A DNA stretch of 11,452 nt, from positions 1 through 11,452 of IMG/VR virus record IMGVR_UViG_2660238548_000003; one strand, given 5' to 3'. The DNA comes from a virus (Duplodnaviria; Heunggongvirae; Uroviricota; Caudoviricetes). Of the stretch, positions 7,865 to 9,042 are shown in pieces (the first letter of the stretch is position 1; every line of letters begins with the position of its first letter). The notes under the pieces are model-generated. The model ran no database searches and had not been told where the DNA came from. It worked only from the letters and a program-made list of their open reading frames with translations. The position numbers and the translations under genes are program-made.

Positions 7865-8016
7865 AGTGTCCTACGTAACTAATTAACGGACAGAATATTT
7901 GCTAGATAGGATACTGATTAACAATGTTAATGGTTTAAGTTTAGCAAGTATTGGGGTTGTTTATGCTTGCTAAATGATACATGATATGGAAATACATGCC
8001 AATAAATGAGGTCTTT

Positions 8017-9042
8017 ATGTCAAATCAAAATAATTCACCACAGGCAAAAGGCGGCAGGGCTAGAGCAGAGAAGATGTCATCTGATGAAAGGGTGGCAGTC
8101 GCGAAAAATGCCGCGAAACAGCGTTGGCAACGGATCAAAAGTGGTCTTCCATCAGCGCAGTTTGAAGGGGTTTTAAGGATTAATGATACTGAACTGGATG
8201 TTGCTGTACTTACTAACGGGAAAAGAATTATATCCCAATCATCGGTTTTTAAAGCCTTGGGTAGACCAAGTCGGGGTGTAAGAGCTACCTTGGATGGTGA
8301 GATCATACTTCCTGCTTTTATGGATGCAGCCAATCTTGTTCCATATATAAATCAAGATCTTATGGGGGTGATCAAACGAGAGCGGTATTTGAGCAATTCT
8401 GGAGTTGAACTTGAAGGGTATGATGCGTCCATTCTCCCATTAGTCTGTGATGCATATTTAAAAGCTAGAGAGGATGGTGCGTTAAAAACCAATCAGATAG
8501 AAATTGCTAAAAAGGCTGAAATTTTGGTACGTTCATTGGCTAAAGTTGGCATCATCGCTTTAGTGGATGAAGCAACAGGATATCAGGAAGTTAGGCCAAA
8601 AGATGCATTGCAAGCATATCTTGATAAAATAATAAGCAAGGAGCTTGCTGCTTGGGCCAAGAAATTCCCTGATGAATTTTATGAGAATATTTATAAGTTA
8701 AGAAATTGGCCCTGGACGGGCATGAGTAAGAATCGTTTTAGTGTAGTAGCGCATTATACGAGGGATCTTGTTTACGAGCGATTAGGTGACTCAATACTTC
8801 AGGAGTTAGAAAAGAAAACACCGAAACAATCTAATGGGCAAAGAAAGAACAAATTGCATCAATGGCTTACTGATGATGTTGGTAATCCAATGTTAGCGCA
8901 ACATCTACATTCTTTAGTTATGATGCAACGTTTGGCAATTGCTAACGGTTATGGATGGAATCGTTTTATAAAAATGGTAGATCAAGTAATGCCTCGTAAG
9001 GGAGGCACATTTGAACTTGAATTGAACGATACTTCTTTATAG
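8017..9042 (+). CDS. AT-rich cargo gene: 342-aa protein of unknown function, resembling proteins annotated as P63C-domain phage proteins
   Basis: Track ORF 7981..9042 trimmed to ATG 8017 (GAGG 5 nt upstream). Base composition is visibly more AT-rich than the flanking genes, and it is preceded by a 150-bp AT-rich non-coding stretch. Basic N-terminal motif KGGRARAEKMSSDERVAVAKNAAKQRW; central IALVDEATGYQ and FPDEFYENIYKLRNWPW. Family recalled, not verified. Confidence 0.7.
   Translation: MSNQNNSPQAKGGRARAEKMSSDERVAVAKNAAKQRWQRIKSGLPSAQFEGVLRINDTELDVAVLTNGKRIISQSSVFKALGRPSRGVRATLDGEIILPAFMDAANLVPYINQDLMGVIKRERYLSNSGVELEGYDASILPLVCDAYLKAREDGALKTNQIEIAKKAEILVRSLAKVGIIALVDEATGYQEVRPKDALQAYLDKIISKELAAWAKKFPDEFYENIYKLRNWPWTGMSKNRFSVVAHYTRDLVYERLGDSILQELEKKTPKQSNGQRKNKLHQWLTDDVGNPMLAQHLHSLVMMQRLAIANGYGWNRFIKMVDQVMPRKGGTFELELNDTSL

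Follow-up and report, generated by a model that had tools for sequence, protein, structure and literature searches.

The question raised by this locus is what a solitary, AT-rich gene is doing directly upstream of a truncated hok gene in a lambdoid prophage. The DNA concerned is a viral stretch of 11,452 nucleotides (nt) (IMG/VR record IMGVR_UViG_2660238548_000003, positions 1 to 11,452; hereafter the window, meaning the whole stretch), and the gene, at 8017-9042 on the plus strand, encodes a 341 amino acid (aa) protein of the P63C family. An earlier examination of the letters without database searches, referred to here as the sequence-only reading, had put the gene forward as a candidate phage-defence moron, and this proposal is supported by a comparison of mobility, selection and shared defence slots. 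The P63C gene moves as a unit between unrelated prophages and is under strong purifying selection, and in four kinds of mobile element the P63C family recurs at positions occupied elsewhere by validated defence or toxin-antitoxin genes. Judged from these sequence comparisons, 8017-9042 is probably a self-contained accessory gene (moron) for a single-protein anti-phage defence factor, most likely one exerting an abortive infection or replication block of the BstA type.

Exchange of the gene as a unit is seen most directly in a 1534 bp module at 7719-9252, which comprises the 3' end of a DUF551-type open reading frame (ORF), an AT-rich spacer, the P63C gene and a hok remnant. This module is 99.2% identical to a segment of a differently built lambdoid prophage of Escherichia coli O8:H28 (locus L002), in which its flanks are 74-84% identical to those of the window or unrelated to them. 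By megablast the window P63C allele is present in six of 5,426 complete E. coli genomes, the hok tail in ~4,700 and a 933W-type P63C allele in 49; two of the six carrier genomes were inspected, and the differently built prophages with the 99.2% identical module are those of these two. No deposited phage record contains the window P63C gene at >85% nucleotide identity. When the window gene is compared with the 88%-identical alleles of Salmonella phage SEN34, Enterobacter mori, Citrobacter sedlakii and Morganella, the nucleotide sequences resemble each other only within the coding sequence (CDS; 8015-9035, 77-78%), and the proportion of nonsynonymous differences (pN) is 0.07 versus a saturated synonymous value (pS) of 0.77-0.80. 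The module shared by unlike prophages, the similarity limited to the CDS and the low pN together indicate that this unit was exchanged recently and is under purifying selection. At its left end (7719) the module starts within the conserved 3' part of the DUF551-type gene, of which the ORFs at 7083-7322 and 7331-7864 are the two halves; the gene is frameshifted, and is annotated as such by the Prokaryotic Genome Annotation Pipeline (PGAP) in an identical copy.

The right end of the module identifies the slot. In the Qin prophage of E. coli K-12 the gene order is relB-relE-hokD-rem-ydfU-ydfT, and window positions 9060-11054 align with Qin hokD-rem-ydfU at 87.8%, the alignment beginning 28 nt inside the hokD CDS. 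The sequence-only reading had placed relBE at this Qin position and had described the hok gene downstream of the P63C gene as truncated, and the alignment with K-12 Qin confirms both. Similarity to other P63C alleles stops at 9035 and similarity to Qin hokD starts at 9060, with the junction between the P63C stop codon and the onset of hok homology lying at 9043-9059 (plus strand). The hok remnant (9060-9187, plus strand) has lost 28 nt from the 5' end of the CDS, the start codon included, together with every upstream mok/sok element; it reads TLIIICITIIVTALVTRKDLCEVRIRTGQTEVAVFTAYESEE followed by a stop, and its first ATG, GTG or TTG is the GTG at 9086. PGAP calls a 40 aa Hok/Gef protein from a non-canonical ATC start at 9065, and the presence of a GAGG 11 nt upstream of this ATC makes read-through or coupled translation from the P63C transcript possible. 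Most of the transmembrane segment and the terminator are retained, the latter a terminator-like hairpin with a T run at 9258-9285 (plus strand) that corresponds to the hok mRNA 3' end and is the first terminator-like site downstream of the P63C gene. Across Qin-like prophages the hok-upstream slot contains relBE, Septu (in another E. coli strain), Paa or P63C. A 53%-identical P63C gene also lies 218 bp from hok, in the opposite relative orientation, in a metagenome-assembled genome of Scandinavium sp. (L044:9575-9783 and 10001-10987), and this is a second, independent association of both genes. Further downstream in the window, the YdfU-like DUF968 protein encoded at 10005-11054 also matches a putative HNH nuclease domain (HNHc_6) at a sub-threshold E of 3e-5.

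The family to which the gene belongs is large and uniform. A protein search with 90% clustering returned >6,600 relatives of ~50-60% identity, nearly all ~340 aa long and of a single architecture, and the window protein is 54-60% identical even to relatives in Acidobacteriota, Burkholderiales, Syntrophales and Xanthomonadales. Strict pattern scans place the family in 365 species, and its distant relatives were first met as solitary genes among housekeeping genes. Among viruses, relatives occur in at least 558 IMG/VR contigs and in 64 of 50,697 deposited phage records. In the P22-like Salmonella phages of the SPN9CC type the P63C gene directly follows cI in the same orientation, with sieB near; in six IMG/VR contigs (L122, L124, L154, L157, L166 and L171) the gene directly upstream of P63C, again on the same strand, encodes a cI-type repressor, called by sequence and an S24-like motif. 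In prophage BTP1 the position downstream of cI is occupied by bstA (PMC8585504). SEN34-like prophages carry an 88-92% identical gene in the nin region, where it adjoins dinI and runs antisense to the operon, and in four of them (L106, L109, L112 and L114) BstA (PADLOC E 1e-121) directly adjoins P63C; BstA is also nearby in L147, where the P63C relative is 47% identical. A Burkholderia P2-like prophage has P63C in a P2 hotspot between gpA/ogr and the portal gene, beside HicAB, and phage 933W has a 49.7% identical homologue in the nin region between a DNA methylase gene and roi. The window copy itself lies in the nin/hok region, not downstream of a repressor. Genes in the fetched loci were called with a simple longest-ORF script.

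These positions bear on whether the gene is an ordinary lytic-cycle gene of the nin region with a role in phage DNA metabolism. Both in the window and in 933W it has the early-operon orientation and lies between the replication genes and Q, as such a gene would. However, most lambdoid phages are without P63C, any relative at all being found in only the 64 deposited phage records given above; in addition, its closest relatives are antisense to the operon, and P63C occurs outside phages too. A lytic nin-region role is considered very unlikely.

Outside phages, a common setting of close relatives is a small transposon. Clustering of neighbouring genes showed that 33 of the 80 closest genome loci have a divergent gene for a 278 aa protein 20-170 bp upstream of P63C. 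This protein is a probable DDE transposase whose best NCBIfam match is NF033558 (IS1 family transposase), with E-values of 1e-12 to 7e-17 and scores of 48-62 bits versus a cutoff of 100. One Acetobacteraceae genome holds two copies of a 3,436 bp segment that are 99.97% identical and end in perfect 21 nt inverted repeats. The terminal inverted repeat (TIR), GGTAGTG(G/T)NNCAGTTTGAA, flanks the transposase and P63C genes on both sides in 35 elements, which measure 1.9-3.9 kb; examples are L091:8124-11558, L093:9061-11200, L062:782-3499 and L012:3262-6163. Perfect target-site duplications, 8 bp long in 30 cases and 9 bp in one, accompany 31 of the 35 elements and are all different save in L066 and L068, which apparently represent one insertion. 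Over the 80 genome loci, 36 have both TIRs and 13 have one. Members of the IS1 family as defined in ISfinder have ends of the form GGnnnTG and target duplications of 8-9 bp, and the carrier element fits in both respects. Its hosts include Proteobacteria, Acidobacteriota, Nitrospirota, Desulfobacterota and others, and no description of this transposon family was found in the searchable literature. What is new here is that an IS1-family-like transposon has close full-length P63C relatives as its cargo in a range of bacterial phyla. The window contains no TIR at up to three mismatches, hence no relic TIR; none is present in L001, L002 or L015-L020, and other enterobacterial and phage P63C copies likewise have no such TIRs. 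Pairs of TIRs ~89 bp apart (L204:10139-10227, L249:414-502, L267:6559-6647 and L287:1281-1369) and others 200-900 bp apart look like non-autonomous derivatives of the carrier resembling miniature inverted-repeat transposable elements. The P63C-bearing copy in L091 has an extra passenger (8153-8779, minus strand), a DUF4145 protein (E 3e-12) for which there is also a weak HEPN-like match; DUF4145 is another gene type seen in defence contexts.

Such an arrangement raises the possibility that P63C is an accessory or regulatory protein of transposition and that its phage copies are leftovers. The gene is divergent from the transposase inside the TIRs in those 33 loci, and the smallest P63C elements (2.1-2.3 kb) have the transposase and P63C as their sole long genes. 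Between the P63C gene and the right TIR there is, moreover, a convergent ORF of ~75-90 aa (about 78) that ends in GG.ARA..L....R.EIA.KAA.ARW, the motif that opens P63C proteins, and the P63C hidden Markov model (HMM) matches these small ORFs at E 1e-8 to 1e-10 (e.g., L091:11049-11285 and L062:3204-3434, both minus strand, and ~16 further elements). This small basic ORF accompanies several cargos and thus belongs to the backbone; its candidacy as a P63C-specific antitoxin was rejected, as it occurs also in elements that do not carry P63C. A transposition role is in turn largely refuted by a TIR-based metagenome scan, which recovered elements that share these ends and whose transposase is 53-68% identical, but in which unrelated genes take the P63C position, and by the at least 558 viral contigs that keep P63C without transposase or TIRs. 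The pairwise divergence of transposase and P63C correlates weakly (r 0.17) and is of little use here. The transposition reading is highly improbable.

The genes found in place of P63C in that scan are BstA (PADLOC E 2.5e-117), SoFic (E 1e-102), RmrA (E 1e-62), PD-Lambda-2_B (E 6e-43) and PDC-S05/RhuM (E 3e-133). Also recovered in this position were a gene with a Panacea antitoxin domain, next to which lies an uncharacterised ORF, and a gene for a Schlafen/AlbA_2 protein, whose neighbouring ORF looks by eye like a DNA methylase. The elements with the first five cargos are, in the same order, L280:740-4343, L242:4852-8853, L238:5743-8753, L253:3382-6378 and L241:5672-8293; since these defence genes are found on the same backbone, BstA, SoFic, RmrA, PD-Lambda-2_B and PDC-S05 travel on a small insertion sequence (IS) element. 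By the same token P63C is one of several interchangeable cargos, a passenger and not a transposition factor, and the cargo position of the carrier is otherwise filled by validated or candidate defence genes. The cargo list also bears on one of the two main rivals of the defence reading, namely that P63C is selfish, a stabilising or toxic gene that, as an addiction module or growth inhibitor, would maintain its element in the population without protecting against phage. Besides the Panacea antitoxin-domain gene, the IS family carries Fic and XRE-ImmA type cargos, P63C replaces relBE beside hok, and solitary copies of it are dispersed over chromosomes, all of which would suit a selfish gene. Yet no recurrent adjacent partner gene, such as a possible antitoxin would be, was found among 78 viral loci, the small IS ORF is not P63C-specific, and a lone toxin would not stay intact under purifying selection. 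A purely selfish role is quite unlikely.

The protein itself contains a single Pfam domain, P63C (PF10546, aa 202-293, E 5e-32), at 110.8 bits versus a gathering cutoff of 26.1, as the sequence-only reading had surmised, and 109 of 109 aligned relatives match the same domain. Nearly its full length (aa 5-339) aligns with positions 4-336 of the 338 of phrog_2384, a family of unknown function (E 5.7e-138). The basic N-terminal motif KGGRARAEK...AKNAAKQRW (aa 9-42; 8041-8142, plus strand) is real and conserved across the family: in the 109 sequences G12, R16 and R36 are invariant and G13 and W37 are present in at least 90%, giving the consensus GG.ARA...R..IA.KAA.ARW. In the AlphaFold2 (AF2) model the motif is predicted to form a two-helix hairpin (helices aa 11-19 and 22-42), followed by a predicted beta-rich middle domain with the motif AVLxDGxRxxSQ (aa 46-136; 8152-8424, plus strand; strands at aa 46-55, 58-65, 70-73, 122-125 and 131-136). 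The helical C-terminal body (aa 139-324; 8431-8988, plus strand) includes the Pfam P63C domain (nt 8620-8895). The sequence-only reading had called this body conserved-looking, and the C-terminal half, with LVDEATGYQ, FPDEFYENIYKL and KNRFSVVAHYTRDLVYER, is indeed the most conserved part of the family alignment. Searches of NCBIfam and of PDB sequences with the window protein found no relative, and literature searches for P63C returned passing mentions only and no functional study.

The domain content is relevant to the other main rival, in which P63C is an antirepressor-like or Bro/KilA-like regulator that binds DNA or the repressor of its own or a competing prophage and alters the lysis-lysogeny decision or host transcription. 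The P63C domain takes its name from Mx8 p63, a protein annotated as antirepressor Ant; the P63C region gives a weak and partial match to phrog_2899 'anti-repressor Ant' (E 4e-8); Foldseek returns faint matches to Bro-N, KilA and antirepressor models; and the 933W homologue adjoins roi. However, the TM scores of the Foldseek matches are 0.15-0.25, and no AntA, ANT, Bro-N or KilA-N Pfam domain is detected in the 109 members at E<=5. An antirepressor is also implausible as a chromosomal IS cargo replacing BstA or SoFic, and equally so when co-transcribed with cI. A regulatory function of this kind is considered unlikely.

The longest mechanical ORF at the gene is 7981-9042 (353 aa), but the ATG at 8017 is the PGAP/RefSeq start in identical copies, and the resulting 341 aa gene call (8017-9042) is supported also by PF10546, phrog_2384 and pN/pS. 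The Shine-Dalgarno sequence GAGG is read from the sequence at 8007-8010 (plus strand), 6 nt before the ATG; the ORF and ribosome-binding site described in the sequence-only reading thus stand, with the length corrected from 342 to 341 aa. That reading had also noted a GC content visibly below that of the neighbours and an AT-rich upstream region, and both were borne out by a GC check. The CDS is 40.1% GC, versus 48.9% for the rest of the window; at third codon positions its GC (31.6%) is lower than that of any other among the 19 window ORFs compared; and the 152 bp upstream spacer (7865-8016, plus strand) is 32.2% GC. The spacer contains a 12 nt inverted repeat, 11/12 complementary (7940-7951 / 7963-7974, TTTAGCAAGTAT / ATGCTTGCTAAA), located 43 nt upstream of the start codon, which could be a candidate operator, a hairpin or a chance occurrence. 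A sigma-70 consensus scan of 7865-8016 found no plus strand promoter, and an Rfam scan over the whole window found nothing.

As a defence factor, the P63C protein would be made by the prophage host; its basic N-terminal hairpin and beta-rich domain would bind to nucleic acid or to a replication intermediate of the infecting phage, and the conserved helical body would then block phage DNA replication or kill the infected cell. Several points weigh against this. The case for defence is one of comparison, and genes unrelated to defence, such as that for the Paa adhesin, are found in the slots concerned too, while the toxin-antitoxin pairs there may be mere addiction modules. Antirepressor-like proteins, Mx8 p63 among them, also have a C-terminal P63C domain. 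Given its early-operon orientation and the lack of a consensus promoter, the window copy may not be expressed in a lysogen. For a gene engaged in an arms race, 50-60% identity between phyla is high, though BstA shows the same pattern. The window protein matches no family among the PADLOC-DB v2.0.0 HMMs at E<=1, a catalogue that dates from 2023, so that a newer one may list P63C already; the SPN9CC homologue likewise has no PADLOC-DB v2.0.0 match. Nor does direct comparison with BstA yield significant similarity, hhalign giving probabilities of 1% and 6%.

If the P63C protein is a defence factor, a large family missing from PADLOC-DB v2.0.0 would be added to the bacterial immune repertoire. More tentatively, the ~340 aa P63C proteins may constitute an abundant single-gene abortive-infection class with a fold absent from the PDB, spread by an IS1-family defence-swapping transposon and repeatedly captured into the defence hotspots of temperate phages. 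With different validated defence genes housed at its one cargo position in different copies, the small carrier offers a compact way to find more single-gene systems through guilt by association, and it would explain how BstA and P63C stay ~50% identical between Enterobacteria and Acidobacteriota. For E. coli, the hok-upstream position of Qin-like prophages emerges as a defence/accessory hotspot.

Four known systems invite comparison. The relBE-hokD locus of K-12 Qin has the same place relative to hok-rem-ydfU-Q in a Qin-like prophage, but the proteins are unrelated, P63C is one gene and relBE a pair, and the window junction cuts 28 nt into the hok CDS. Mx8 p63 and the Bro-N-P63C antirepressor-like proteins, the source of the Pfam family, have in common with the window protein a P63C domain of ~90 aa, but are shorter (245 aa) with a different N-terminal domain, and similarity is limited to aa 199-294. 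ST933Wp35 of 933W, from the Stx2 phages, is of the same family and length, is 49.7% identical and is likewise a nin-region gene; it occupies a different slot, between the DNA methylase gene and roi, and is less similar to the window protein than are the IS-borne copies of Acidobacteriota and Burkholderiales.

The comparative evidence as a whole places P63C among accessory genes of the defence/toxin-antitoxin class, and the comparison with BstA of prophage BTP1 (PADLOC PDLC02356, Pfam PF26567) points to this protein as the closest functional analogue of P63C, without detectable homology. The PADLOC BstA HMM does not match the window protein at E<=1, and homology was rejected since neither sequence-profile nor profile-profile comparison is significant; in the weak hhalign alignment (E 0.006, probability 6%) the N-terminal halves are collinear over 130 columns, the middle domain being set against the N-terminal part of BstA that includes its KilA-N-like region. 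The two families differ in that BstA has the C-terminal domain PF26567 whereas P63C members show P63C alone in Pfam, and P63C proteins possess the extra basic N-terminal hairpin. The P63C family is also several-fold larger (>6,600 versus 883 matches), and neither a defence phenotype nor an aba-like self-immunity element is known for it. They are alike in being single proteins of ~300-340 aa whose N-terminal part is beta-rich and whose C-terminal part is helical, in lying directly downstream of cI in P22-like prophages, in entering the SEN34-type nin hotspot, in filling the same cargo position of the IS1-family transposon, and in remaining ~50% identical within each family across phyla. It is this likeness in size, two-part build, three genomic positions and cross-phylum conservation that leads us to propose a BstA-like mode of action for the P63C protein.
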